Shown: piece after piece, positions 1 to 62,734 of the stretch
Layout: every line of letters begins with the position of its first letter
How positions within the stretch are numbered: the stretch's first letter is position 1
Source: an uncultured Candidatus Saccharibacteria bacterium
GTDB lineage: Bacteria > Patescibacteriota > Minisyncoccia > Phycocordibacterales > DATGWK01
Assembly: GCA_964356815.1 (NCBI GenBank)
Contig: CAYHIR010000002.1
Span: 7,418 to 71,417 of the forward strand
Reading direction: 5' to 3'
DNA length: 64,000 nucleotides
Position numbers and translations under genes: made by a program
The notes under the pieces: model-generated
Database searches by the model: none
Seen by the model: the letters and a program-made list of their open reading frames with translations, nothing else
What the model was told of the DNA's origin: nothing

Positions 1-657
1 CACGGCAAGGCGGAAATAAATGAAAATGTTACATACGCGGTGAGCGAAGATCCGATTGAGTCGATGTTTTTCTTGGCGGTCGCGGCGGTGACGAAATCTC
101 GCATCATTATTCGCCGCTGTCCGATAGAATTTTTGGAACTCGAACTTTTACGGCTGTCGAAAATGAATTTCAAATATAAAATCCTCGAGCGTTACGAAGC
201 AAAAAACGGCCGCACGAAACTCGTCGACATCGAAACGTTTCCGTCGAAGCTCGTCGCGCTCAAAGATAAAATCGAGTCGCGTCCATATCCTGGCTTAAAT
301 ATCGACAATTTGCCTTTTTTCGCCGTCATCGCCACGCAAGCCAAAGGCACCACCTTTATCCACGATTGGGTTTACGAAAAACGCGCCATTCATTATAAAG
401 AGCTCGACAAACTCGGCGCCGACACTCTGCTCGCCGATCCTCACCGTATTTATATAACCGGTCCGACAAAGCTCAAAGCTGCGGAAGTCATTTGCCCGCC
501 CGCACTTCGCCCGGCCGCCATCATTCTCATCGGCATGCTCGCGGCACCCGGCCGTTCTGTGCTTCGAAATATTTACAGCATCAACCGCGGTTATGAAGAC
601 ATCGTGAAGCGACTCGCCGCAATTGGCGCGGATGTAAAAATTGTTGAGGATTTATAA
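1..657 (+). CDS. murA: UDP-N-acetylglucosamine 1-carboxyvinyltransferase (MurA), C-terminal part; gene continues upstream of window
   Basis: Open frame from nt 1 with no stop. The C-terminal RGYEDIVKRLAAIGADVKIVED and HRIYITGP motifs are typical of the MurA/EPT-fold C-terminus. Confidence 0.55.
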   Translation, partial: HGKAEINENVTYAVSEDPIESMFFLAVAAVTKSRIIIRRCPIEFLELELLRLSKMNFKYKILERYEAKNGRTKLVDIETFPSKLVALKDKIESRPYPGLNIDNLPFFAVIATQAKGTTFIHDWVYEKRAIHYKELDKLGADTLLADPHRIYITGPTKLKAAEVICPPALRPAAIILIGMLAAPGRSVLRNIYSINRGYEDIVKRLAAIGADVKIVEDL

Positions 658-5007: not shown

Positions 5008-5370
5008 ATGTGCACGGCAATACTGTCCACGGCCGATTTGCCCGCATACAACGTCGTATGCCGGACATGTAATCATGTCTTTTCACCGGCCCGCAAAAGT
5101 TCTTTGTGGTGGAGAGCGGCGAAGTGCGCCGAAGGAGGTCGACTCAATGCGATGATGATCAGCGGAGAAGAATGCGGATGCGTCAGCACACCCGTCGAAC
5201 CAAATGCTCCCTTCAGACTTTTCGGGTACGATGACCTGTGCAGGCCATTCGACATACCGCTCGCCAGATTCATCGATGCAGTGAGGGGGTTCAAGAAACT
5301 GGAACGTACGGGATGCACGGTCTTCATTTCCGGAATTTCCAAGGAGGTCAGAGACCGAATAGGTGCGTGA
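5008..5370 (+). CDS. hypothetical Cys-rich small protein (GC-rich cassette gene)
   Basis: 120-aa ORF with SD AAAGGAG 8 nt upstream and a TTGACA promoter. About 55% GC. An overlapping minus-strand ORF (5083-5493) has no SD, so strand choice is uncertain. Confidence 0.4.
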   Translation: MCTAILSTADLPAYNVVCRTCNHVFSPARKSSLWWRAAKCAEGGRLNAMMISGEECGCVSTPVEPNAPFRLFGYDDLCRPFDIPLARFIDAVRGFKKLERTGCTVFISGISKEVRDRIGA

Positions 5371-7067: not shown

Positions 7068-7376
7068 TCCGCGATAGCTCAGCTGGTAGAGCGAGCGACT
7101 GTGAACAAAATCGCAGCTTCCCGAAGTAATTCGGGTTGAAAAACGAGGTTAATTGCTGGAAGCCCACCCGATCGAAAGATCGCGGGTAATCAGCAGCCGA
7201 GCCTGTCATTCGACAGGAAGGTTCAGAGACTATCCCTAACGGGAGTACTTGGCCGAAAGGTCTAGGAAACACCTCGCGCCCCATTTATTGGGGCGATGAT
7301 ATAGTCCATCCCTTTAAGAAATTTTAGGATCGATGTAATCGCTTGGTCGCAGGTTCGAGTCCTGCTCGCGGAGCCA
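7068..7376 (+). tRNA. tRNA-Asn (anticodon GUU) interrupted in the anticodon loop by a group I intron
   Basis: 5' half 7068-7102: acceptor TCCGCGA, D-arm GCTC/AGCTGGTA/GAGC, anticodon stem AGCGA, loop CTGT. 3' half 7336-7376: TAA, TCGCT, variable TGGTC, T-arm GCAGG/TTCGAGT/CCTGC, acceptor TCGCGGA, discriminator G, CCA. The spliced anticodon loop is CUGUUAA. Confidence 0.75.
7103..7335 (+). ncRNA. group I self-splicing intron (233 nt, no ORF)
   Basis: R element GTTCAGAGACTA (7221-7232) and S element GATATAGTCC (7298-7307) form P7. The 5' exon ends in U and can pair with intron GCAG (7113-7116) as P1. The terminal nucleotide is G (omega-G) at 7335. Confidence 0.7.
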
Positions 7377-10146: not shown

Positions 10147-11016
10147 ATGGAACCAGCCCAAAAAAATCGCGCCTTGGGTGTCGTCCTGATTGCTATTATT
10201 CTAATCGGTGGCTTTTTCTTCTACCGCACATACACCAAGCTAAGCGACGCTCGAAGCGAGCTCTCCTCTTCAACAGCCGCCGCAGAGGAGTTCCAATTTC
10301 AACTTTCTGAAGCGGGAGAAGAAAACGCTGAGCTTAAAGAATCACTAGAAAATGAGCGCGCTCGAGCCGAAGAGCTTTCGGAGAAATTGTCTGATGCAAC
10401 GGGCGCAATAGATGAATTTGAAAAATTGAGTCGCATCGATCCAGAGCTTCTCCAAAAATATTCCAAGGTCTTCTTTCTAAATGAAAATTACAAACCGGCA
10501 GATCTCCAAGACATAACCACAAAATATTTATACACACCCGCCAAGCCAGCTACGATTCACGATGAGGTTTGGTCGAATCTTCGCCGCCTTCTTGCCCGTG
10601 CCGAAAGAGACAAGGCGCCCTTAAAGGTCGTCTCGGGCTTTCGTTCCTTCGAAGATCAGACCACGCTAAAAGGTAAATACACAACCGTCTACGGTTCTGG
10701 CGCTAATCAGTTTTCCGCCGATCAAGGCTACTCCGAACATCAGCTTGGCACAGCCGTCGACTTTGCTACCGTCGACACTCCACCCGCTGAATTAATTTTT
10801 GAAAATACTGCCGGTTACAAATGGCTCCAGAAAAATGCTCACAATTACGGCTTCGTCCTTTCCTATCCAAAAGGCAATTCGTTCTACCAATTTGAGCCGT
10901 GGCACTGGCGCTTCGTCGGTGTTGACTTAGCTACGGATCTTTACAACGACGAGAAAAATTTCTACGAAATGGATCAGCGTGAGATTGATAAATATTTAAT
11001 TAAGATTTTCGATTAA
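10147..11016 (+). CDS. peptidase M15 (VanY/D-Ala-D-Ala carboxypeptidase family), membrane anchored
   Basis: N-terminal TM plus coiled coil. Motifs SGFRSFEDQ, SEHQLGTAVDF and EPWHWRFVG match zinc D,D-carboxypeptidases. Confidence 0.75.
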   Translation: MEPAQKNRALGVVLIAIILIGGFFFYRTYTKLSDARSELSSSTAAAEEFQFQLSEAGEENAELKESLENERARAEELSEKLSDATGAIDEFEKLSRIDPELLQKYSKVFFLNENYKPADLQDITTKYLYTPAKPATIHDEVWSNLRRLLARAERDKAPLKVVSGFRSFEDQTTLKGKYTTVYGSGANQFSADQGYSEHQLGTAVDFATVDTPPAELIFENTAGYKWLQKNAHNYGFVLSYPKGNSFYQFEPWHWRFVGVDLATDLYNDEKNFYEMDQREIDKYLIKIFD

Positions 11017-11743: not shown

Positions 11744-12613
11744 ATGTACACAAGAAAAATCGCAGGTTTAGACCGTGAGCTTCATTGGCCGGCGGTGCTT
11801 GGCCTCGGATTTATTCATGTAGTAGCCCTATGCGCCATCTGGCCAGGCTTCTTTTCGTGGAGTGGTCTGATTATCGCCGTCTTTCTTGGCTGGCTTTCTG
11901 GCTGGCTTGGAATCACACTGTGCTTCCATCGTCTGCTCACCCACCGAAGCTTTGAGACGCCAAAATGGTTTGAATATTTTCTGACCATCTGCGGCACTCT
12001 GGCTTGGCAAGGTGGGCCGATCACTTGGGTCGGCACTCATCGCATTCACCACGCTTATTCCGACGAAGATGGCGACCCTCACTCGCCCCGACACGGACCT
12101 TGGTGGGCACATGTCTTTTGGACCGTCTTCAAGAGACCGATCGGTGCCAGAGATCCGTGGAGCGTTGCCAAAGATCTTTCGGGCGATAAAGGGACTTTCC
12201 TAATCGACCGATTTTTCGGGGCTCCGCAATTCGTTGTGACAATCGCTCTTCTCACCGCCGGTTACTTTCTCTACGGAGCCGAGACAGCACTTTCGTGGTT
12301 CGTTTGGGGTATTGGAGTCCGCACTTTCGTGATCTACCATATCACATGGGCAGTCAATTCGATTTGCCACATGTGGGGCTACAGAAACTTCGAAACCTCT
12401 GACCAGTCACGGAATAATCTACTGGTTGGCATCCTTTCAGCAGGAGAAGGTTTCCACAACAACCATCACCGCGACCAACGCTCCGCGAGACACGGCATGA
12501 AGTGGTGGGAAATTGATGTCACCTGGCTGACGATCAAAATCCTGTCCTTCCTCGGACTTGCTTGGAACATCAAACAACCCAACTCCGAGACGCTCACAAA
12601 ACTCGCCGGATAA
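11744..12613 (+). CDS. acyl-CoA/acyl-lipid delta-9 fatty acid desaturase (membrane, three His boxes)
   Basis: His boxes HRLLTH, HRIHHAYSD and HNNHHRD. SD GGAGGGG upstream. About 52% GC. Terminator at about 12640-12672. Confidence 0.75.
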   Translation: MYTRKIAGLDRELHWPAVLGLGFIHVVALCAIWPGFFSWSGLIIAVFLGWLSGWLGITLCFHRLLTHRSFETPKWFEYFLTICGTLAWQGGPITWVGTHRIHHAYSDEDGDPHSPRHGPWWAHVFWTVFKRPIGARDPWSVAKDLSGDKGTFLIDRFFGAPQFVVTIALLTAGYFLYGAETALSWFVWGIGVRTFVIYHITWAVNSICHMWGYRNFETSDQSRNNLLVGILSAGEGFHNNHHRDQRSARHGMKWWEIDVTWLTIKILSFLGLAWNIKQPNSETLTKLAG

Positions 12614-12823: not shown

Positions 12824-13327
12824 ATGATGAGCGGAGCTCATGGACAGATCTACCCCAGAGATTTCGGGGAGCTCGATGAAGACGACAGCGTGGGATTTTT
12901 CATGGAGCATGAGGGTGCTGTTTGCTCAATTGCGAAGGTCTTCTGGTTCTCATTCGCCGCCATCGCCCTCTGTCTCGGTCTCCTCCTCATGGCACAGAGG
13001 CCCACTGATCCAAACGGCCCAATGAGCTGGCAAGATGGCCAATTCTTCGTGGTCAACCGAAGCTTCGGAGACCTTCATGTTCTCAGGATCAACCGACTCT
13101 ACCGAGTCGTGGGAACTGATCAGGACAACAGCCTGCGCGTTGAATACATGTACGGGCCGTGGCCACTTAATAAGGAAAGGCGTGAGAGCACGCTTTCAGC
13201 CAAGTGGCTCAAAGAGAACGTGCGACGGTCAGACTGTACTGTGGTGAACGGGAGCGACCGCAAATACACCGAGCAGATAGCGGAGCTCACGGGTGTAATC
13301 AAAAACGCCGCTCTCGCTGGCAGATAA
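12824..13327 (+). CDS. hypothetical membrane-anchored protein (GC-rich cassette gene)
   Basis: SD AGGAGG 7 nt before ATG. One TM segment. Terminator downstream. Confidence 0.45.
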   Translation: MMSGAHGQIYPRDFGELDEDDSVGFFMEHEGAVCSIAKVFWFSFAAIALCLGLLLMAQRPTDPNGPMSWQDGQFFVVNRSFGDLHVLRINRLYRVVGTDQDNSLRVEYMYGPWPLNKERRESTLSAKWLKENVRRSDCTVVNGSDRKYTEQIAELTGVIKNAALAGR

Positions 13328-27121: not shown

Positions 27122-27748
27122 ATGAACATTTCGAGGAAAGGTCTCGCGTTCAAGATTCGCTGGTTTCTTTTTGAGCCCAGTGAAAAAATGCTGTGGCAGG
27201 ACAGTCTCTGCAAATTCTGGTGGATGTTCCTGTTCAGACTACTCTTGGTGATTCCAGTGGTGGTGGCCTTCTTCGCGATCGTCATGACTCTGATGATTTC
27301 GTGGGAGCTGTTCTGGATGATCGTCGGCTTGCCTTTTGGATTCAGAACTCTTCTGTTTTTTGAAGAACCACGAAGGGATGACGTTCCAGTGTACCTTGAA
27401 CCCGAACAGGAATGCTGGGGCATGACCTGGCGGAAAATTCCGTACTGGCCGCTCCGTGGCGGATGGCGTTTGCTACCCATCACACTGGTGTCGCTAACCA
27501 CCATCGTGGCCAGCCTCTTCATCTTCAGAGAACCGATCCTGCATTTTGTCTCGGCAGTTGGCATGTGGTCTGTCGAGACGATGCCGCGAATTGCCCTTAT
27601 GGGTATCGCCTTGGCTCTGTCCGTAACCGCTGGCATTGGCGCAATCAAGGTCTTCCGAGCCATCAAGCGGAGTGAAATCGGTCGAATCGGTCGCGCCAGG
27701 TACGACGCCTTCAAGCAAGGTGTTTGCCCGAAGATCAACTACGTCTAG
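27122..27748 (+). CDS. hypothetical polytopic membrane protein (GC-rich cassette gene)
   Basis: SD AAGGAGA 6 nt before ATG. Five or six TM segments. About 52% GC. Terminator downstream. Confidence 0.45.
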   Translation: MNISRKGLAFKIRWFLFEPSEKMLWQDSLCKFWWMFLFRLLLVIPVVVAFFAIVMTLMISWELFWMIVGLPFGFRTLLFFEEPRRDDVPVYLEPEQECWGMTWRKIPYWPLRGGWRLLPITLVSLTTIVASLFIFREPILHFVSAVGMWSVETMPRIALMGIALALSVTAGIGAIKVFRAIKRSEIGRIGRARYDAFKQGVCPKINYV

Positions 27749-27973: not shown

Positions 27974-29257
27974 CTAATAATTCCTCAACCTATTAATATC
28001 CGCATGTTGCCTAATCTTCTCATGCGCTTTTGCCTCAATCTGTCGAATACGCTCGCGAGTCACACCAAATTCCTTGCCCACCTCTTCAAGTGTGTGGGTG
28101 ATGCCGTCTACCAAACCGTGACGCATTTCGAGAATTTTGCGCTCTTTGGCTGGCAAGTGATCTAAGATTTGTTTAACTTGATCAGAAATAATTCGGCGAG
28201 AAGATTCTTGGTCGGGAGAAAGAATTTTGTCGTCGGCAATAAAATCGCCAAGAGTTGATTTGCCATCGTCGCTGTCGTCGCCTACCGGGCTTTCAAGTGA
28301 GACTGTGTTTTGGTCAATTTTTTCTATTTGATAAATTTTCTCCACATCCATATTCATTTCAGTGGCTACTTCTTCGGGCATCGGATCGCGGCCAAGGTCT
28401 TGAGAAAGTCGGCGTACGACTTGCTTGTATTTAGCAATCGTCTCCACCATATGCACCGGCACGCGAATGGTGCGCGACTGATCAGCTAACGCACGAGTAA
28501 TGGCCTGACGAATCCACCATGTGGCATAGGTAGAAAATTTATAACCCTTCGTCCAATCGAATTTGTCGACAGCTTTGAAAAGGCCGAGATTGCCTTCTTG
28601 AATGAGATCGAGCAAAGTGAGATCTGGGCTACGGCCAACATATTTTTTAGCGATAGAAACCACGAGGCGAAGATTTGAACGAGCGAGCAAATTTCGCGCC
28701 TCTTCTTCACCAGCGATAATGCGCCGAGCAAAATCTTTTTCTTGGGCGCCGGAAATGAGCGGATATTGGCCGATTTCTTTGAGATACATTTGAATGGAAT
28801 CGTACGAAGAACCCTCGCCACCGTAAGAATATTTCTTGCCCACGACAGGATCGTCTGGCGACATGTCAAGCAAGCCGCCGCTTTCAAGGACATCCACACC
28901 CGCTTCGGCGAGGCGCAAATATAGATCTTCGAGAAATACGAGGTCAGTTTCGATTGTTGGAAATTCTTTGAGAATTTCGTCGTAGGTAATGAAGCCGCGC
29001 TCTCTGCCCTTAGTGAGTAAGTGCTTCACACCAAGCTCGAGCTTTTGAGCCTTTTTCTGAAGTATTGGTGAGAGTTTTACTTTTGGTTTTGACGACTTTG
29101 ATTTTGAAACTTTTGCCAACTTCACTTTCTTCGCAGACTTGGCGACTGTTTTTTTCTTAGGAACTTTTTTCTTGGCCGGCTTTTTTGATTTATTTGACTT
29201 CTTTGCGTGAGTTGCCTTTTTTGCTGACTTTGTTTTTTTGTTTTTTTGTTTTTTCAT
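27974..29257 (-). CDS. rpoD: RNA polymerase sigma factor RpoD (sigma70) with lysine-rich N-terminal tail
   Basis: Regions 1.2 through 4 ([47 protein letters not shown]). First 65 aa are K-rich. Confidence 0.9.
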
Positions 29258-34830: not shown

Positions 34831-37800
34831 TTAAGCGTCGAGTTCTCCACTTGCTTGGGCATCAGCATTCGAGGCGGTCGACTTATCCGCTTTTTCTGCA
34901 CCAGCACCAGCGCCAAGTTTGTCTATTTTCTTAAGATCGATATCCAAGCCAAGACCACGAAGATTGTTCAAAAGCACATTGAAAGAGGCGGGAATATTTA
35001 GCTCACGGATCGGCTCACCTTTGACGATCGCATCGAAAGCGGCTGAGCGACCAGGGATGTCGTCGGATTTGATTGTGAGCATTTCACGAAGTGTGTACGC
35101 GGCGCCATGACCAAGAAGTGCCCAAACTTCCATTTCTCCAAATCGCTGACCTCCAGCTTGGGCTTTTCCACCGAGAGGTTGCTGAGTGATGAGAGAGTAC
35201 GGACCAATAGATCGCATGTGAATTTTGTCTTCAACCATGTGATGAAGCTTCAAGACATACATGTAACCAATTGCAATTTTCTGACCAAATTCTTCGCCAG
35301 TGCGTCCATCGAAAAGAGTGACTTTGCCATCTGCTTCGAAGCCAGCTTTCACCAATTCTTCTTTAATTTCAATATCACTCGCGCCAGTAAACGGAGGCAC
35401 GATAGCTTGGTAGCCAAGAGTGTGAGCGGCAAGACCAAGATGAAGCTCGAGAATTTGTCCAAGGTTCATACGAGAAGGCACGCCGAGAGGAGTAAGAATC
35501 ACATCCACAGGTGTACCGTCGGCCATGTAAGGCATATCTTCTTCAGGCAAGATGCGAGAAATAACACCTTTATTGCCGTGGCGGCCAGCGAGTTTGTCAC
35601 CCACAGACACATTTCGGAGTTGGGCGACTTCAATATGAATACGCTTGATAATGCCCGAGTCGAGCTTGTCGCCGCGCTCGCGTGAGAAGACCTGCACATT
35701 TATAATACGACCGCGCTTGCCACCTTCCATGCGCTTTGATGTGTCTTTGACATCGCGAGCTTTTTCACCAAATAGAGATCGGAGCAAACGCTCTTCAGGA
35801 GTAAGTTGTGTCTCACCTTTTGGTGTAATTTTTCCTACCAAAATATCACCCGGACGGACTTCTGCACCGATGCGAATGATGCCGTCTTCAGCCAAGTTTT
35901 TTAGCTTCGCTTCGCCAACGTTTGGAATGTCGCAGGTTGTAACTTCCGGACCGAGTTTTGTATCGCGCACATTCACGACAAATTCTTCAATATGAATAGT
36001 TGTAAATTTGCTGTCTTTTACGAGGCGCTCAGAAAGGATAATGGCGTCTTCATAATTTGATCCAGACCATGACATGAAAGCCACCAAAACGTTTTGGCCG
36101 AGTGCCATTTCGCCGCGATCGCTAGAAGATGTATCAGCAAGGACATGGCCTTTCTTCACTTTCTCACCAAGGCCAACGCTCGGTCGTTGATGGAAACATG
36201 TAAAGCCGTTTGTGCGTGAGAATGTGACGAGCTTATATTCTTTTTCTTTACCCTTTTCGTTTTTCACAGTAATGCTTTTCGCATCTACTTGAGTGACAGT
36301 CCCCGCTTCTTCTGCAAGAACGAGGCGGCCAGTGTCGCGGACAGCGCGAGCTTCGATGCCAGTGGCAACGAGTGGCGCTTCAGGCACGATACAAGGTGTA
36401 GCTTGTTTCTGCATGTTTGAACCCATGAGTGCGCGATTGGCATCGTCGTGATTCAAGAAAGGAATCATGGAAGTAGCAACAGAGAAAGCTTGGTTTGTAT
36501 CGACATCTATATAGTCGACCTTATCGGCAGTGACCATACCCGGCTCGCCAGCAATGCGTACCTCGACATTTTTATCAATAATTTTTCCACTTTCATCTAC
36601 AGGCGTCGCGGCGTGAGCGATGTTGCATTGCTCTTCTTCGAGAGCGTTCAGGTAAGAAATTTCGGTTGTCACAACGCCATTTTTCACGCGGGCGTACGGC
36701 GTTTCGATCATGCCGAATTCGTTGAGACGAGCGTACAAGCTCAAGCGCAAAATGAGACCGATGTTTGGACCTTCAGGTGTGTGAATTGGACAAAGACGAC
36801 CGTAATGAGAGGGGTGAACATCGCGCACCTCGAAGCCGGCGCGAGCGCGATTCAAACCACCAGGGCCGAGTGCGGAAAGTGTACGCAAATGCTCAATTTC
36901 TGAAAGCGCATTTTCCTGTTGCATGAATTGCGAAAGCTGATTGGTCGTGAAAAATTCTTTAATGCGAGCTTGGAGAGGCTTTGGGCTGATGAATTGCACA
37001 GGCAAAGTGACATCGCTCTCAACGGTCGACATTCGGTTTTGAATGTTGCGCTTAATCTGCGTCATACCAACACGAATCTTTTGCTGGAACATTTCGCCCA
37101 CAAAGCGCACGCGGCGTGAACCGAGATGATCGATATCATCTTCCATCGCGCCAGGGGTCGTGTTGAGTTTAATAATATTAGAAACAATTGTCTTCAAATC
37201 TTCGAGAGAAATAGTCTTTCGAGAAAGCTCGGGCTCTGTGAGCTTCTTTTCAAAACGCTGATTGAAGCGGAAACGACCGACGCGAGAAAGATCGTAGCGT
37301 TCTTCGTCAAAAATAGATTTTACAAATTCGCGGGCATTGTCGGCTGTTGCCAAATCGCCGTCGCGAAGGCGTTTGTGAATTTCAATAAAAGCTTCTTCAG
37401 GAGTTTTGGCGTGATCTTTGGCGAGAGTCTTCTCAATAAATTGCTTGGCGGCAGGATTGTCCTCAAAAAGCGCCGAAATGTCTTTATCTGTAGACGCACC
37501 ACGGACACGAAGGAGAGACGTGACCGGGAACTTTCGCTTGCGATCGATGCGTACATATAGAGTGTGATCGCCATCTGTCTCGATTTCTACCCAAGCACCG
37601 CGAGCAGGAATGATCTTCGCACCAAAAACCATTTTGCCCTTCGCTTCTTGAGATGTGAAGAAAACACCGAAAGAACGAGCGAGCTGTGGCACCACCACGC
37701 GCTCAATACCACCCACGACGAATGTACCGTGACTCGTCATCATCGGAAAATCGGTCATGAAAATCTCTTGCTCTTTTGTGGTGCCGAGTGTGAGATTTTT

Positions 37801-38130
37801 TAGCTTCACAATCACCTTAAGCGGTGCTTCGTAGGAGAGTTTATTGTCTTTGGCGTAGTATTCGTCAAACTTGGGCTGTGCCAACTCAAACTTCACAAAT
37901 TCAAACTCAAACTTTTTACCAGAATAATCTTTAATAGAAGAAAATTCTGCAAACACATCTTTGAGGCCTTTCTCAATAAGCCAATTGAAAGAGTTGATCT
38001 GAGACTCAACCAAATTTGGCATTGGCGAAAGAGCTTTCTTCCACTTGCCGAAATATTTCTTCTTGAGCTCTTTCGGTGCGTTTGTGAGAGCAACACTAGC
38101 GCCGCCTTTTTCTTCAGTGTGAGTGGTCAT
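34831..38130 (-). CDS. rpoB: DNA-directed RNA polymerase subunit beta
   Basis: Conserved rpoB blocks throughout 1099 aa. Immediately upstream of rpoC. Confidence 0.95.
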   Translation of the reverse strand: MTTHTEEKGGASVALTNAPKELKKKYFGKWKKALSPMPNLVESQINSFNWLIEKGLKDVFAEFSSIKDYSGKKFEFEFVKFELAQPKFDEYYAKDNKLSYEAPLKVIVKLKNLTLGTTKEQEIFMTDFPMMTSHGTFVVGGIERVVVPQLARSFGVFFTSQEAKGKMVFGAKIIPARGAWVEIETDGDHTLYVRIDRKRKFPVTSLLRVRGASTDKDISALFEDNPAAKQFIEKTLAKDHAKTPEEAFIEIHKRLRDGDLATADNAREFVKSIFDEERYDLSRVGRFRFNQRFEKKLTEPELSRKTISLEDLKTIVSNIIKLNTTPGAMEDDIDHLGSRRVRFVGEMFQQKIRVGMTQIKRNIQNRMSTVESDVTLPVQFISPKPLQARIKEFFTTNQLSQFMQQENALSEIEHLRTLSALGPGGLNRARAGFEVRDVHPSHYGRLCPIHTPEGPNIGLILRLSLYARLNEFGMIETPYARVKNGVVTTEISYLNALEEEQCNIAHAATPVDESGKIIDKNVEVRIAGEPGMVTADKVDYIDVDTNQAFSVATSMIPFLNHDDANRALMGSNMQKQATPCIVPEAPLVATGIEARAVRDTGRLVLAEEAGTVTQVDAKSITVKNEKGKEKEYKLVTFSRTNGFTCFHQRPSVGLGEKVKKGHVLADTSSSDRGEMALGQNVLVAFMSWSGSNYEDAIILSERLVKDSKFTTIHIEEFVVNVRDTKLGPEVTTCDIPNVGEAKLKNLAEDGIIRIGAEVRPGDILVGKITPKGETQLTPEERLLRSLFGEKARDVKDTSKRMEGGKRGRIINVQVFSRERGDKLDSGIIKRIHIEVAQLRNVSVGDKLAGRHGNKGVISRILPEEDMPYMADGTPVDVILTPLGVPSRMNLGQILELHLGLAAHTLGYQAIVPPFTGASDIEIKEELVKAGFEADGKVTLFDGRTGEEFGQKIAIGYMYVLKLHHMVEDKIHMRSIGPYSLITQQPLGGKAQAGGQRFGEMEVWALLGHGAAYTLREMLTIKSDDIPGRSAAFDAIVKGEPIRELNIPASFNVLLNNLRGLGLDIDLKKIDKLGAGAGAEKADKSTASNADAQASGELDA

Positions 38131-38456
38131 GATTAATTATTTAGCGATTGATAAGTTCTAAACCGACGGTCAGACCGGCAAACGCACCGGCAAAAACAAC
38201 AAATTTCGCACAAACAAACAAAAACACGCCCTATCCACAATAGGGGCTTGTTAACCTCTTAAATATTTATCTATTAAAATGGGACAAAATACCGAAAGGA
38301 TTAAAACGCCTTGCTAATCCTTCATTTTCTAGCCGTAACTCAATCGTATTTGAAGTATCGCGATTATAGTCGACTATCAATTTTCTGTCAAGAAGGGTTA
38401 AAGGAGGGTGTGGGGATAGCCCAGTTTGCTATATGTCTCGAAATGACCATGGCGAG

Positions 38457-57987: not shown

Positions 57988-58236
57988 TCACTCGATTTCT
58001 TTGATGATGACGTACACGACCCTACTCATTTCCGGCTTGGCGACTTGGGCCACCCTCACTTTTTCGCCCCTGTGGTAGAGATGATAGATTCCCCCAAGAG
58101 TCACCTTCATACCCGGTTGAAAATACTGGAGTTGAATAAGGTGATCACTAGCAGGATCCTGCCTCACAAAAACCCTGAGCTCCTTGCCAATCACAACCAC
58201 AGAACCACTACCTAGATTTGCATGAACAATGCCCAT
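57988..58236 (-). CDS. hypothetical small protein, paralog of 58549-58812 (GC-rich cassette gene)
   Basis: SD AAAGGAGAAAG 7 nt before ATG. C-terminal half aligns with the neighbour: PGMKVTLGG...RGEKVRVAQVAKPEMSRVVYVIIKEIE. Confidence 0.5.
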   Translation of the reverse strand: MGIVHANLGSGSVVVIGKELRVFVRQDPASDHLIQLQYFQPGMKVTLGGIYHLYHRGEKVRVAQVAKPEMSRVVYVIIKEIE

Positions 58237-58325
58237 CGTTCGCTTTCTCCTTTCATTTTAGATGGTTTCGATACACCCTCAACACATCTAATCTTATAAA
58301 AACAAAATAGTCAATAATTTTGGGC

Positions 58326-58372
58326 AAAAAAAAGCCCCCGAGACCAAAAATCGCGTTAGGCGTTCTCGGGGG
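58326..58372 (-). terminator. rho-independent terminator (minus strand) between the two paralog genes
   Basis: CCCCCGAGA-20 nt-TCTCGGGGG. On the minus strand it is followed by TTTTTTTT. Confidence 0.55.
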
Positions 58373-58548
58373 ACTTTGAGGGTCACAAGTAAAAATAATT
58401 GCGAAAGGGATAAACGGACACCTCCCGAAGAGCCATGCCCTTGCACTCTCCGAGAGGGTCCGCCACAGAAGGAAGGACTTATTACACTCCTGTTTACAGT
58501 TTATACGAGAGTTGAACCATCTGTCAACAAAAGCTTGGGGTGACACTC

Positions 58549-58812
58549 TCACTCAAGATCGTCAACGATCACAAAACTTGCCTGCGGCATCGCAGGAGCA
58601 ATGATCTGAGCAACTTTTCTCGTTGAGCCATCGCAGTGCTCTGTTCTGGATTCTCCAAGAGTGACCTGAGTACCCCACGGAATCAGACCATGATAAGAAA
58701 GTCCCTTTCTACTTCCCCCCCCTTCGCTTCTTCTAAAAAATCTGGCATCCTTGGTGAGCTTGAACACTGGCCCTTCTTTCTTTGGCTTTCGATACTTTTT
58801 CCTAGCACCCAT
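58549..58812 (-). CDS. hypothetical basic small protein, paralog of 57988-58236 (GC-rich cassette gene)
   Basis: SD AAGGAGAAAAC before ATG (MGARKKY). C-terminus WGTQVTLGE...STRKVAQIIAPAMPQASFVIVDDLE. Upstream the TGTGATTAAATAT motif is shared with the 2719-3288 gene. Confidence 0.5.
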   Translation of the reverse strand: MGARKKYRKPKKEGPVFKLTKDARFFRRSEGGGSRKGLSYHGLIPWGTQVTLGESRTEHCDGSTRKVAQIIAPAMPQASFVIVDDLE

Positions 58813-58950
58813 CGTTTTCTCCTTGTTAAAACGTCCCGCCATATTTAATCACACACAGTAAAAAAGTCCATACCCAGGCAAACTTATTGAGCCCAAAAAA
58901 AATTTGCGCCATGGTTTGCGAAAACTGCCGCAGAAAAATTTGTTTGGGCG

Positions 58951-61089
58951 TTAGATATCAATCGTCGCCTTCTTAGCATTCGACTGAATGAACGACTTTC
59001 GCGCTGGCACATCAGTACCCATGAGAATGTCGAAAACCTTGTCGGCATCTTGGGCGTCTACCACACCCACACGCTTCATCACGCGACGCTTTGGATCCAT
59101 GGTCGTCTCCCACAACTCTTCGGAATTCATTTCTCCAAGACCTTTGTAACGTTGAATTGAAATTTTATCTTTCTTTGGTGCGAGTTTGGATTTTTTGCCC
59201 GAAGCATCTTCGTCGGCGGCTTCTTCATTCTCTTCACCGTTTGCATTTTCTCCGTCACCTTCGCCATTCGCATCTTCCTCATCCCCAGCAATATCCTCCA
59301 TCTGCATACTAGCTTCTTTGCCGATGATGGCGATTTTTTCGTCGTCGTTGTAGGCGTAGAAAATTTCTTTACCTTTTTTTATTTTATAAAGCGGCGGCTG
59401 AGCGATGTAGATGTGGCCGGCATCGATAAGCGGACGGAAGAAACGATACAAAAGTGTGAGAATGAGTGTGCGAATGTGCGCACCGTCAACGTCGGCATCG
59501 GTAGCGATGACGATTTTGTGATAACGAAGCTTAGTGATATCGAAAGTGTCGCCAATGGCTGTGCCAAGTGCGAGCACGAGATTTTTGATCTGCTCAGAAC
59601 CGAGCATGCGGTCGAGCCTAGCGCGCTCAATATTTAAAATTTTACCGCGAAGTGGTAGCACCGCTTGCGTACGACGATCGCGACCGCTTTTGGCAGTACC
59701 ACCAGCAGAATCTCCTTCCACAATGAAGAGTTCGCTTTCTTCGGCGCTCGTGCCAGCTTGGCAATCGGCGAGCTTACCAGGCAAAGTCATGCCTTCGAGT
59801 GCGCCTTTGCGGAGCACGCTGTCTTTGGCGGCCTTGGCGGCTTTGCGGGCCTTCATGGCGAGCGTCACTTTGCCAATGATAGCCCGCGCATCTTCAGGGT
59901 TTTCTTCTAGGAAATAGGCAAACGCTTCGCTGAAAACTGTCTCCACCATACCGCGAGCTTCCACCGTACCAAGCTTGGCCTTTGTCTGACCTTCAAACTG
60001 CACTTCGCGAAGCTTTAAAGAAATAACGGCCGTGAGACCCTCCATCACATCGTCGCCAGTGAAAGAGTCGTCTTCTTTGCCGCCGCTCTTGCTACCACTG
60101 CCGCTGCCTCCCGCACTTTTGCGCACCAAAGTATTTATTGTGCGAGTGAGAGCCGTCTTAAAACCAGTGACATGCGTACCACCTTCGGAATTGTAGATAT
60201 TGTTGGCAAACGCGTTGAGACGGCTAGAAATGTCGTCGACATATTGGAGTGAAATTTCGACAGACTCATATTCATTGGTTTTTTTCTCAATGTAAAAAAT
60301 GTTTTTGTGAATTGGTTTGAGAGCGTTGTTGTAAAACTTTACGAGCGAATAGAGACCACCCTCAAAATAGAAAGATTGGGACGGCGCATTTGGCTTTAAA
60401 TCGCGCAAATAGAAAACTTCGTCTTCGAAAAAATCGCCTTTCATTGAGCCATCAGCCGCAACTTCGCGAGCATCGATGACGCTAATTCGCAAACCTTTCA
60501 CGAGGTAGGCTTGCTGGCGCATGTGAGACACGATGCGATTGAAATCGAAATCTTGTTTGCCGAAAATTTGCTCATCGGGCTGAAAGAAAACGATCGTGCC
60601 GTTTTGCTTCGTTGAAGCCACTTTTTTCACAGTCGCTTTTCTCTTGCCACGCACATATTCCTGCATATAAATGCCGCCCTCTTTGTGCACCACGACTTTT
60701 GTATATTCTGAAAGCGCGTTTACAACAGACGCGCCCACGCCGTGCAAACCGCCAGATACTTTATAACCTTCGCCACCAAATTTTCCTCCGGCATGCAAAG
60801 TGGTCATGATCGTCTCGAGCGCTGAAACTTTCGTTTGCTTATGCATATCGACAGGAATACCGCGGCCGTTGTCTACTACACGCACATGATTGTCGGGCAA
60901 AAGGGCGATCTCGATGTCGTTCGCAAAACCACCCATCGCTTCGTCGCGGGAATTGTCGAAAATTTCGGTGACCAAATGATGAAAACCGTCCGGACCCGTT
61001 GTACCAATGTACATACCCGGCCTCTTGCGTACTGGCTCTAAGCCCTCAAGTACGGAAATATCCGACGCTGTATAGTTTGATTTGGCCAT
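58951..61089 (-). CDS. gyrB: DNA gyrase subunit B (type IIA topoisomerase B) with Gly/Ser and acidic low-complexity insertions
   Basis: GHKL ATPase N-terminus, TOPRIM EGDSAGG and PLRGKILN. Acidic insert GDEEDANGEGDGENANGEENEE near the C-terminus. Confidence 0.85.
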   Translation of the reverse strand: MAKSNYTASDISVLEGLEPVRKRPGMYIGTTGPDGFHHLVTEIFDNSRDEAMGGFANDIEIALLPDNHVRVVDNGRGIPVDMHKQTKVSALETIMTTLHAGGKFGGEGYKVSGGLHGVGASVVNALSEYTKVVVHKEGGIYMQEYVRGKRKATVKKVASTKQNGTIVFFQPDEQIFGKQDFDFNRIVSHMRQQAYLVKGLRISVIDAREVAADGSMKGDFFEDEVFYLRDLKPNAPSQSFYFEGGLYSLVKFYNNALKPIHKNIFYIEKKTNEYESVEISLQYVDDISSRLNAFANNIYNSEGGTHVTGFKTALTRTINTLVRKSAGGSGSGSKSGGKEDDSFTGDDVMEGLTAVISLKLREVQFEGQTKAKLGTVEARGMVETVFSEAFAYFLEENPEDARAIIGKVTLAMKARKAAKAAKDSVLRKGALEGMTLPGKLADCQAGTSAEESELFIVEGDSAGGTAKSGRDRRTQAVLPLRGKILNIERARLDRMLGSEQIKNLVLALGTAIGDTFDITKLRYHKIVIATDADVDGAHIRTLILTLLYRFFRPLIDAGHIYIAQPPLYKIKKGKEIFYAYNDDEKIAIIGKEASMQMEDIAGDEEDANGEGDGENANGEENEEAADEDASGKKSKLAPKKDKISIQRYKGLGEMNSEELWETTMDPKRRVMKRVGVVDAQDADKVFDILMGTDVPARKSFIQSNAKKATIDI

Positions 61090-61246
61090 TTATATAAGAT
61101 TTATGAGGATTTGCAACACTTTTAGAACACTTATTGTAGCAAAATTACCCCCTTAAAACAAGCTCAAAACAGACCCCTTTATACACAATAATAAGCCCCA
61201 TTTTGGGCCTTTTTTCGGCTTTTATCAATTTAAATCGATTTCATGC

Positions 61247-61275
61247 TTGACAGAATATACATAGTATGATATGAT
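61247..61275 (+). promoter_or_regulatory. strong sigma70-like promoter TTGACA-N17-TATGAT
   Basis: Perfect -35 box, 17-nt spacer, 5/6 -10 match. About 80 nt upstream of the SD-preceded small ORF. Confidence 0.6.
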
Positions 61276-61356
61276 TAAAGCAGAAGAAGTTTGGTTTGTC
61301 TAGCACAGCGTTTGTGCAAGACACTCCGAACAAGGCTCCACAGAAGGAGTTTGTCC

Positions 61357-61467
61357 ATGTATTACGACTCATTCACCGGCCTCTACTTCAACCCCACCAC
61401 CGGAATGGTCTTCACCGCCGCCGAGATCATCGGCTTCGCCTCGGGCGACGGCGAGTGGGGCAGGTAA
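61357..61467 (+). CDS. 36-aa small ORF (possible leader peptide or small protein)
   Basis: SD GAAGGAG 7 nt before ATG. Sequence MYYDSFTGLYFNPTTGMVFTAAEIIGFASGDGEWGR. About 60% GC. Terminator 35 nt downstream; pheS starts at 61583. Confidence 0.35.
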   Translation: MYYDSFTGLYFNPTTGMVFTAAEIIGFASGDGEWGR

Positions 61468-61502
61468 GCCCAACCGCCCGACAACATGGGGAAGAAGAGA
61501 TT

Positions 61503-61538
61503 AGACCACGCTACTTTGTACGGCGTGGTCTTCTTTTT
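61503..61538 (+). terminator. rho-independent terminator just upstream of pheS
   Basis: AGACCACGC-tactttgtacg-GCGTGGTCT followed by TCTTTTTG. Confidence 0.6.
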
Positions 61539-61582
61539 GCCAATTTTTGTAAAATCGCGGTGGCTGGTGTATATTTTAAGCC

Positions 61583-62734
61583 ATGAAAAGAACGCAATAT
61601 AATGTCTCACTCGACGAGCAGACGCAGATTCTAAAGACACTAGACGACCGAGCAGACACTCAAGCTGAGCGACTCAAGCGTTACATTGCTCTCCCCGACC
61701 TCACTCGCACTGAGGGTGGGCCACTGAAAGTCATTACCGACACAATCATCAGTCTGCCGAGCTTAAAAGATTTCGATATTATTGAGACACCAGAAGTTAT
61801 TTCCCCATCTATCGTCTTCGACCTTTTTAATTTTCCCAAAGATCATCCCGCTCGCACCCAGAGCGACACATATTATGTAGACGACACGCACATTCTCCGC
61901 CCGCACACGAGTCTCATGTGGAAATATTACCTTGAGATTCCAGAGGTTTTGGAAAAACTCGAAAAAGACGGCCAAGTGGGCGCGCTATGCTACGGCACTG
62001 TATATCGTCGTGACGAAATAGATTGGCAACACACAAACGTCCTTCATCACATCGACGGTCTTTATCTTTGCAAAAAATCGGTGAAAGAACTCGGTCAGCC
62101 AGACCTCGAAAACATTCTATGGGAAGTGGCACGACAAATTTTCGGCAAAGATGTAAAAGCAGAGTTTCGTGTAGATCATTTCCCTTACACCGATCCGAGT
62201 CTCGAAATGAATATTGCTTGGGGTGAAAAATGGATTGAAATTTTGGGCGCAGGTATCGTCCATCCGGCGGTTATAAAAAATCTCGGCCTCGACCCAGAAA
62301 TTTACAATGGCTGGGCATTCGGTTTTGGTGTCGATCGTCTTGCAATGATCAAAATGCAAATTCCCGACATTCGCCTCCTCCGATCTGAAGATGAGCGCGT
62401 AAAAAAACAACTCGCCGACATAAATCACAAATATCAAGCGGTGAGCAAATATCCGTCAGTGGTGCGCGATATTTCTTTCGTTGTAGACAAAGCTTCATTC
62501 AACGAATTCCGTTATTACGAAATCGTTCGCGAAATTGGCGACGATCTTATTGAAGAAGTTAAACTGCTCGACAAATACGAAAGCGAGAGCAAATTCGGCG
62601 CCGGAAAAATTAGTTACACATTCCGAATCACCTATCGCGACCTAGACCGCACACTCACAAGCGAAGAAGTTGATGTTGTACACAAAAATATCGAGAACAA
62701 AACCACTGAGGAATTTGGCGCGATGATCAGATAA
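61583..62734 (+). CDS. pheS: phenylalanyl-tRNA synthetase catalytic (alpha) chain fused to a C-terminal FDX-ACB anticodon-binding domain
   Basis: Class II core (FPYTDPSLEMNIAWGEKWIEILGAG, GWAFGFGVDRLAM). C-terminal 95 aa match the ferredoxin-fold anticodon-binding domain normally found at the PheT C-terminus. No pheT adjacent. Confidence 0.8.
   Translation: MKRTQYNVSLDEQTQILKTLDDRADTQAERLKRYIALPDLTRTEGGPLKVITDTIISLPSLKDFDIIETPEVISPSIVFDLFNFPKDHPARTQSDTYYVDDTHILRPHTSLMWKYYLEIPEVLEKLEKDGQVGALCYGTVYRRDEIDWQHTNVLHHIDGLYLCKKSVKELGQPDLENILWEVARQIFGKDVKAEFRVDHFPYTDPSLEMNIAWGEKWIEILGAGIVHPAVIKNLGLDPEIYNGWAFGFGVDRLAMIKMQIPDIRLLRSEDERVKKQLADINHKYQAVSKYPSVVRDISFVVDKASFNEFRYYEIVREIGDDLIEEVKLLDKYESESKFGAGKISYTFRITYRDLDRTLTSEEVDVVHKNIENKTTEEFGAMIR

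Follow-up and report, generated by a model that had tools for sequence, protein, structure and literature searches.

Is the short transcription unit that precedes a bacterial phenylalanyl-tRNA synthetase (PheRS) gene a regulator of that gene, or is it a small gene in its own right? The question is raised by a stretch of 64,000 nucleotides from an uncultured Candidatus Saccharibacteria bacterium (contig CAYHIR010000002.1), referred to here as the window, in which a promoter (P1), an open reading frame (ORF) of 36 codons led by a Shine-Dalgarno (SD) sequence and an intrinsic terminator lie immediately before pheS. The PheRS protein of the window is 100% identical to a protein from a 'Patescibacteria group bacterium' metagenome-assembled genome at NCBI, and the identical protein is encoded on several contigs of groundwater origin from Hainich well H41; the host is a groundwater member of the Patescibacteria, or Candidate Phyla Radiation (CPR). 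In Enterobacteria, the pheM and pheL leaders are leader-peptide transcription attenuators of pheST and pheA, and the unit in the window is like them in having a promoter, a short ORF and an intrinsic terminator just before the PheRS gene.

The first-pass annotation had offered two readings of the unit, an attenuator-like leader and an independent small gene, and every element on which they were based was found in place (Table 1). Our analysis favors the second reading. With a probability of about 0.5, we consider the small ORF unit to be an autonomous, probably translated and fast-evolving micro-gene of foreign-like composition, which appears to occupy a position held in sister lineages by a phenylalanine-dependent attenuator.

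Results

A short ORF of foreign-like composition equipped with its own signals

P1 fits the promoter consensus at 11/12 positions and has an extended -10 TG in addition, with transcription predicted to start at about 61282-61283. Sites of the form TTGACA-N17-TATAAT with at most one mismatch occur twice in the 64 kb where 0.29 would be expected, and 7/100 shuffles reach two. Downstream of P1, the 5' untranslated region (5'UTR) is predicted to fold into two hairpins, both recovered in minimum-free-energy and centroid folds. The second of these pairs the SD sequence GAAGGAG (61343-61349), which is separated from the ATG by a 7-nt spacer, with an upstream CUCC.

The ORF itself is set apart by its composition. 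GC content is 0.46 over the window and reaches its local peak, 0.66, at this locus; by codon position it is 0.43/0.49/0.89. Among the 35 internal codons, 26 are NNC codons and the GC content of third positions (GC3) is 0.91, as against 0.47±0.08 from host synonymous usage, a value attained in 0/20000 simulations. No other window ORF of at least 30 aa has a GC3 of 0.75 or more. Translational selection for C-ending codons can be rejected as the cause, given that GC3 is 0.27-0.57 in rpoB, rpoC, gyrB and every other large ORF whose GC profile is gene-like. Three-base periodicity as strong as that of the small ORF was found in 0/20000 nucleotide shuffles. A minus-strand ORF of 85 aa (61383-61640) has third positions in common with it, but was rejected as the source of this periodicity, as it spans both the terminator and the start of pheS and lacks a counterpart in the closest relative.

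An SD-like motif precedes just one host gene among 40 longest-ORF starts, some of which may have been called too long. A wider scan added a few SD-led ORFs (5008-5370, 11744-12613, 12824-13327 and 27122-27748; GC3 0.57-0.67), one of which is a fatty-acid desaturase gene. These are probably a horizontally acquired set of which the small ORF is the extreme, and would correspond to the foreign cassette class mentioned in the first-pass annotation. Hence the earlier suggestion of an independent small gene with foreign composition gains support from the GC3 outlier, the periodicity and the presence of an SD sequence in an SD-poor genome.

The small ORF is probably translated, as judged by its open-frame periodicity, the conservation of SD, spacing and ATG and the kept frames described below, together with a predicted fold and a motif likeness of the product. 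An AlphaFold2 single-sequence model of the peptide has a pLDDT of 83.6, with strands at residues 2-4, 9-12 and 17-20 and a helix at 21-28. The motif YYD..TG.YFNP.TG resembles OCRE-like and YYNPxTG beta-hairpin repeat proteins; the score against Pfam OCRE (PF17780) is 23.3 bits with a cutoff of 24.7 (E 6.5e-5). A phmmer search of 1.8 billion representatives returned two repeat proteins as best matches (E 1.7e-5 and 2.4e-5) and two more at about 8e-4, while the top Foldseek match, the RBM10 OCRE domain, has an rmsd of 0.8 over 21 residues and an E of 2, which is not significant. Residues 2-21 (YYDSFTGLYFNPTTGMVF) fit the pattern YYDxxTGxYYDPxTG of the OCRE/WW-like aromatic beta-hairpin repeats of RBM5 and RBM10, and the three short beta-strands are likewise in keeping with them. 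Set against this likeness are the sub-cutoff Pfam score, the non-significant Foldseek match, the eukaryotic distribution and length of OCRE (about 55 residues) and an allele in the closest relative that does not have the motif.

From the composition we infer that the ORF is of foreign origin. A phage or plasmid source was looked for and rejected, since tblastn and blastn gave only chance GC-rich matches; in a scan of viral contigs with the conserved flanks, the SD block had four matches, about as many as chance would give and all to unrelated phage genes, and the 30-mer had none.

Conserved flanks around a divergent peptide

The only close relative, L001, has a PheRS 91% identical to that of the window, and the comparison of alleles therefore rests on these two genomes. 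Contigs of the same species have leaders that are identical throughout and add no information, and a search for closer relatives with the GyrB N-terminus gave a best match of only 79% identity.

At the same ATG, L001 has an ORF of 49 codons (MPKETSLSIENPPEAHEKFVIIGDVVVSEKELKRHGRPDRDSNGELGDN) with one Phe. Its GC3 is 0.875, where 0.43 is expected (0/20000 simulations), and periodicity is again found in the open frame. In both genomes the frame that starts at this SD-spaced ATG has stayed open, with in-frame indels only. The two peptides are barely alignable (z = 2.3; 12/500 shuffles score as well), the shared islands being NP, F..IIG and (D/N)GE(W/L)G, and the search with the L001 peptide found no homologue. 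Its resemblance to another window ORF (57988-58236), at 10/21 residues, was discarded as not significant after a six-frame search (E 4.3).

The sequence surrounding the ORF behaves differently. Upstream, the 5'UTR block GACACTCC..CACAGAAGGAG..TGTC(C)ATG is kept in L001, along with CUCC/GGAG and GACA/UGUC pairings equal to those of the window. Downstream, both genomes have ACGGCGAGTKGGGC at the ORF end, ACCGCCC, CATGGGG.A.AAGAGA, the terminator and a second, predicted promoter, P2. The block at the ORF 3' end (61447-61461) is identical at 13/15 positions, the other two being non-synonymous differences, with no synonymous change. The terminator stem contains a compensatory change from A-U to G-C. 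There is also a weak indication, by eye, that CAUGG of the post-stop block could pair with UCCAUG at the ORF start, with one covarying pair (U-A to C-G).

The yardstick for these comparisons is pheS, whose four-fold sites are 49% identical between the two genomes, so that neutral positions have come close to saturation. Identity over the stretch that begins with CATGGGG and ends at the pheS ATG is about 85% by hand count on the alignment. It follows that the flanks are constrained and that the ORF body, at the amino-acid level, is not.

Sister lineages have phenylalanine attenuators at the same site

In relatives with a PheRS 65-79% identical to that of the window, the leader is AT-rich and codes for a peptide with a Phe run, after which come a terminator hairpin and a U-tract (Table 1). 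The leaders contain 4-8 Phe codons, which are clustered. In L002, the leader-ORF segment CCCAACACGG perfectly complements the terminator 3' arm CCGUGUUGGG over 10 bp, forming an antiterminator, and there is no promoter-like site between the terminator and pheS. The presence of Phe-run leaders in sister lineages suggests that the attenuator is ancestral and was lost in the lineage of the window and L001, where it looks to have been replaced. Our literature search found no report of leader-peptide attenuation in CPR bacteria.

The resemblance to pheST leader attenuators that the first-pass annotation had noted therefore holds for the site, where sister lineages have them exactly, and fails for the element now present in the window. 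Its ORF contains four scattered Phe codons, all TTC, and no Phe run, and it ends 36 nt before the terminator stem. The hairpin, which has a GC-rich stem of 10 bp counting a terminal U-G, has a predicted free energy of -25.8 kcal/mol with its A-tract/U-tract extension, in which the A-rich part of the CATGGGGAAGAAGAGA region pairs with the U-tract. It formed in every fold, including one in which the ORF was kept single-stranded in imitation of translation. A simple terminator scanner had missed it, as the loop limit of 8 nt excluded its 9-nt loop.

The alternative terminator and antiterminator structures that had been suspected were sought by folding without the terminator 3' arm. The core 5' arm then remained unpaired, and no mutually exclusive antiterminator was predicted; only GGGGAAGAAG, the A-tract extension, gained a partner, the ORF bases CUCUACUUCAACCCC. 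No equivalent alternative pairing is common to the window and L001. Nor is the peptide conserved upstream of pheS in relatives, an outcome that the first-pass annotation had named as refuting an attenuator; the peptide of the closest relative is another one and contains just one Phe. We have consequently rejected the window element as a Phe attenuator: it has neither Phe run nor antiterminator, its stop lies too far upstream of the stem, and pheS has P2 as a predicted promoter of its own.

A further type of pheS leader is conserved over the last ~100 nt before the gene in another group of relatives, L012, L024, L026, L025, L033 and L015, with the sequence ...CTTGCC(C/T)AAA...TCTTTCGATACACTATTTTCATACTAATATTATATAAAAACATG and no Phe-run ORF. 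The TCTTTCGATACACTATTTTCATACTAATATTATATAAAAACATG-type leader may be a promoter or a cis element.

A predicted promoter for pheS alone

The identification of pheS as a single-chain PheRS is borne out by its Pfam domains (Table 1) and by its best solved relatives, the mitochondrial PheRS enzymes (E 2e-56). Its ATG lies 44 nt beyond the terminator U-tract, and the intervening sequence contains P2. Both P2 hexamers and the bases from there to the ATG are identical in L001, whereas 5/17 spacer bases differ.

The distance between P2 and the start codon is one favored in this genome. At 5-8 nt upstream of starts, four distances in all, there are nine -10-like hexamers, compared with 16 over the other 51 distances. 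Examples are found at 10147, 22943, 26963(-), 43853 and 56090, often with an upstream TG. Leaderless mRNAs are thus probably widespread in this genome, and the pheS mRNA is predicted to be one of them, transcribed from P2. With P2 conserved and in the leaderless register, pheS would have no need of read-through from P1.

The window PheRS does not have the nine N-terminal residues (MQNIYEMPHL-type) of L001 and of distant homologues of 390-393 aa (61583-61612). Over the 23 nt before the ATG the window and L001 are nonetheless identical, which indicates an in-frame deletion directly after the start codon.

Table 1. Coordinates and sequence details of the small ORF unit, of pheS and of Phe-run leaders in relatives
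Feature	Position	Strand	Details
Promoter P1	61247-61275	+	TTGACA (61247-61252), 17-nt spacer ending TGa, TATGAT (61270-61275)
5'UTR, 75 nt	61282-61356	+	stable hairpin 61289-61331; second hairpin 61333-61352
Small ORF, 36 codons	61357-61467	+	ATG 61357, TAA 61465-61467, product MYYDSFTGLYFNPTTGMVFTAAEIIGFASGDGEWGR
Nucleotide-conserved block, ORF 3' end	61447-61461	+	GACGGCGAGTGGGGC; AACGGCGAGTTGGGC in L001
Post-stop conserved blocks	61473-61479; 61485-61500	+	ACCGCCC; CATGGGGAAGAAGAGA; from alignment with L001
Intrinsic terminator	61503-61538	+	stem 61503-61512/61522-61531, 9-nt loop, UCUUUUU 61532-61538
Promoter P2	61547-61575	+	TTGTAA, 17-nt spacer, TATATT; 9/12 consensus; ends 7 nt before ATG
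pheS, single-chain PheRS, 383 aa	61583-62734	+	Pfam tRNA-synt_2d plus FDX-ACB
Phe-run leader, L002/L022	L002 2849-2974		MYMIFNYNIFFFFSFTFPTRTGAF
Phe-run leader, L003	2773-2960		...NFFFSFRFPAKVALF
Phe-run leader, L004	about 176-320		...LFFRFTCPVMARFF
Phe-run leader, L016	upstream of pheS		...SVFFFTFGNPSRVDLCV
Phe-run leader, L028	upstream of pheS		...TTFFGFFFTPHNKASFF

Discussion

Taken together, these findings suggest a model in which a self-contained unit of about 258 nt would start at P1, continue with a structured, SD-containing 5'UTR and the 36-codon ORF, and end at an intrinsic terminator. We regard it as self-contained because its signals are complete and its own, and because the terminator formed in every fold tested. 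The unit would sit in, and have replaced, the slot of the Phe-run leader-peptide attenuator of sister Patescibacteria. Its terminator would now serve mainly to shield pheS from P1, with pheS transcribed from P2 as a leaderless mRNA and so expressed, presumably, without dependence on the ORF. With a separate promoter between terminator and pheS, and with neither Phe run nor antiterminator, it departs from the enterobacterial pheST and pheA attenuators, which it is also unlike in having a 75-nt 5'UTR with an SD sequence and foreign codon usage.

Several observations weigh against an autonomous micro-gene. Among about 15 billion proteins the window peptide stands alone, with no homologue found, and this, together with the weak alignment to the L001 peptide, leaves no visible purifying selection on the amino-acid sequence, as judged from two alleles. 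Non-coding flanks that are better conserved than the ORF point to a function at the level of RNA or DNA. The SD is rarely used in this genome, and in both the window and L001 it is predicted to be sequestered in a hairpin. Furthermore, should the ORF be older than the divergence of the two lineages, simple amelioration toward 0.47 would have brought GC3 below the values of about 0.9 seen in both genomes, an excess for which foreign origin does not by itself account; we estimate roughly 0.7-0.8 after amelioration, with a standard error of about 0.06 on so few codons. The excess in both genomes would call either for later exchange or acquisition via the conserved flanks, or for selection on third-position G+C.

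It is tempting to speculate that selection maintains the open frame, its SD and its high GC3, while the amino-acid sequence may vary freely or is even driven to change. We think this unlikely, albeit less so than any of the rival explanations considered below. It could take two forms, both possible. In the first, the unit would be a translation-sensing RNA module in an SD-poor genome that favors leaderless mRNAs; it might, for example, report the pool of SD-competent ribosomes, having replaced amino-acid-specific attenuation of an aminoacyl-tRNA synthetase gene. In the second, it would code for a hypervariable micro-protein of an epibiotic bacterium, shaped by diversifying or balancing selection, and its alleles would be swapped via the conserved flanks.

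Among the rivals, the one that survives best, though we consider it improbable, is that the unit is a non-canonical, translation-dependent leader which still controls pheS in cis. On this account the act of translation, and not the peptide, would set the passage of transcription from P1 through the terminator or the interference of P1 with P2. What is conserved fits such a role: start signals, the ORF end, the post-stop blocks and the terminator are kept and the amino-acid sequence is not, and conservation of signals rather than peptide is typical of regulatory upstream ORFs. The location, exactly at the Phe attenuator site of relatives, and the pairing of GGGGAAGAAG with the ORF bases CUCUACUUCAACCCC once the terminator 3' arm is removed can be counted in its favor as well. 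Yet there is no Phe-codon run with which to sense phenylalanine (four scattered codons in 36, and one in 49 in L001), the core arms of the terminator are never sequestered and its hairpin forms whether the ORF is folded or open, the ORF stop is far enough from the stem to place the latter outside the ribosome footprint, and the conserved P2 would remove the need for read-through. The same explanation might draw on a second frame, 61486-61602, which opens at the conserved CAUGGGG, runs through the terminator and overlaps the pheS start. Despite indels of +4 and -1, L001 keeps this frame, which opens with the ATG at 61486; preservation alone, however, is a one-in-three chance, and the changes in its peptide between the genomes are mostly non-synonymous as read from the alignment. 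As a relic Phe leader the second frame was rejected, since its Phe codons simply reflect the U-tract of the terminator and the peptide it encodes has not been conserved.

Next in order, and a somewhat poorer prospect, is an abundant small RNA, possibly of dual function, in which the conserved 5' hairpins and 3' blocks would do the work and the ORF would be a captured relic of foreign coding sequence. A very strong promoter paired with a strong terminator, non-coding blocks more conserved than the ORF body and an SD sequestered in a hairpin in both genomes speak for such an RNA, and the 264-nt window transcript folds with a z of -5.4, which 0/200 shuffles match. The L001 transcript, however, has an unremarkable z of -1.4, and its ORF-body helices differ from those of the window. 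The minus strand of the unit also folds well (z = -3.7), so that part of the folding signal must come from GC content and the terminator. Moreover, an open frame from an SD-spaced ATG and codon periodicity are kept in both genomes. Searches of Rfam gave no family for such an RNA: cmscan of 60900-61900 at E up to 1 returned only a chance miRNA hairpin of 23 bits against a 95-bit cutoff, and a T-box riboswitch or other Rfam family at the locus was rejected for want of a match.

The weakest of the three, and in our view quite improbable, is a functionless remnant in which a foreign high-GC coding fragment broke the attenuator and the ORF now drifts, only the terminator and P2 being of consequence: this would agree with an ORF-body divergence close to the neutral four-fold expectation, with an orphan peptide and with the foreign DNA uptake evident from the other SD-led ORFs of raised GC3, but drift does not account for a 5'UTR/SD/ATG block nearly identical in L001 despite saturated neutral sites, for a frame open in both genomes with only in-frame indels, for a GC3 near 0.9 in both lineages or for a P1 that is still near-consensus.

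Among other known systems, the unit can be likened to orphan or horizontally acquired small-protein genes (<50 aa), with which it shares an autonomous SD-led short ORF of atypical composition and no homologues. It differs from them in occupying a former attenuator slot, in having flanks more conserved than its coding part, and in a GC3 that stays near 0.9 in both lineages despite saturated synonymous sites. Type I toxin mRNAs, of the hok and tisB type, are similar in that a short ORF is strongly transcribed, its SD is sequestered, the 5' and 3' ends may fold back on each other and the terminator is strong. No transmembrane helix is found in the window or L001 peptide, the latter being highly charged, and a type I toxin-antitoxin system was rejected, as neither peptide is membrane-like and the minus strand of 61247-61583 has no promoter-like site.

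Diversity-generating retroelements are common in CPR bacteria, and their targets resemble the locus in that a variable coding stretch is followed on its 3' side by a GC-rich conserved block and then by a hairpin; the predominance of NNC codons in the window allele (26/35) is a further point of likeness. Differences between the window and L001 alleles comprise indels and substitutions of every base type, unlike those of retroelement targets, which vary at adenine-templated sites alone; in addition, no template repeat was found in the 64 kb by blastn at word size 7, and no reverse transcriptase was present among the ten ORFs scanned.

The locus may represent a case of regulatory turnover, in which one lineage exchanged a Phe-codon attenuator for a leaderless promoter and a small gene insulated by its terminator. 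The classical Phe-codon attenuator is apparently widespread before the monomeric PheRS gene of Patescibacteria. The small ORF is, in turn, an unusually clean compositional outlier, combining a GC3 near 0.9 with a strong SD, in which the flanks are conserved and the peptide is not. Should selection maintain this pattern, it would define either an unrecognized class of small ORFs, in which translation or composition matters and not the product, or a hypervariable micro-protein of an epibiont; if selection does not maintain it, the small ORF is simply an orphan gene.

Other features of the window

The unit is preceded by gyrB on the minus strand (58951-61089), and an RpoD-type sigma factor is encoded at 27974-29257. 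At gathering thresholds, the only Rfam match in the whole window is a group I catalytic intron at 7093-7328 (+), away from the small ORF locus (70.9 bits, E 5.6e-16), and ARAGORN found neither tRNA nor tmRNA in the window. The second near-consensus promoter site is a perfect TTGACA-17-TATAAT at 38363-38391 (-), about 230 nt upstream of the rpoB ORF (34831-38130), and a leader of this length is long for a genome favoring leaderless mRNAs. Two paralogous small ORFs at 57988-58236 (-) and 58549-58842 (-) are 30% identical (E 4e-7) and match no Pfam family. The GC-rich spacer of about 310 nt between them (58237-58548) has no Rfam match and holds CCACAGAAGGAA, which is similar to the SD block of the small ORF.

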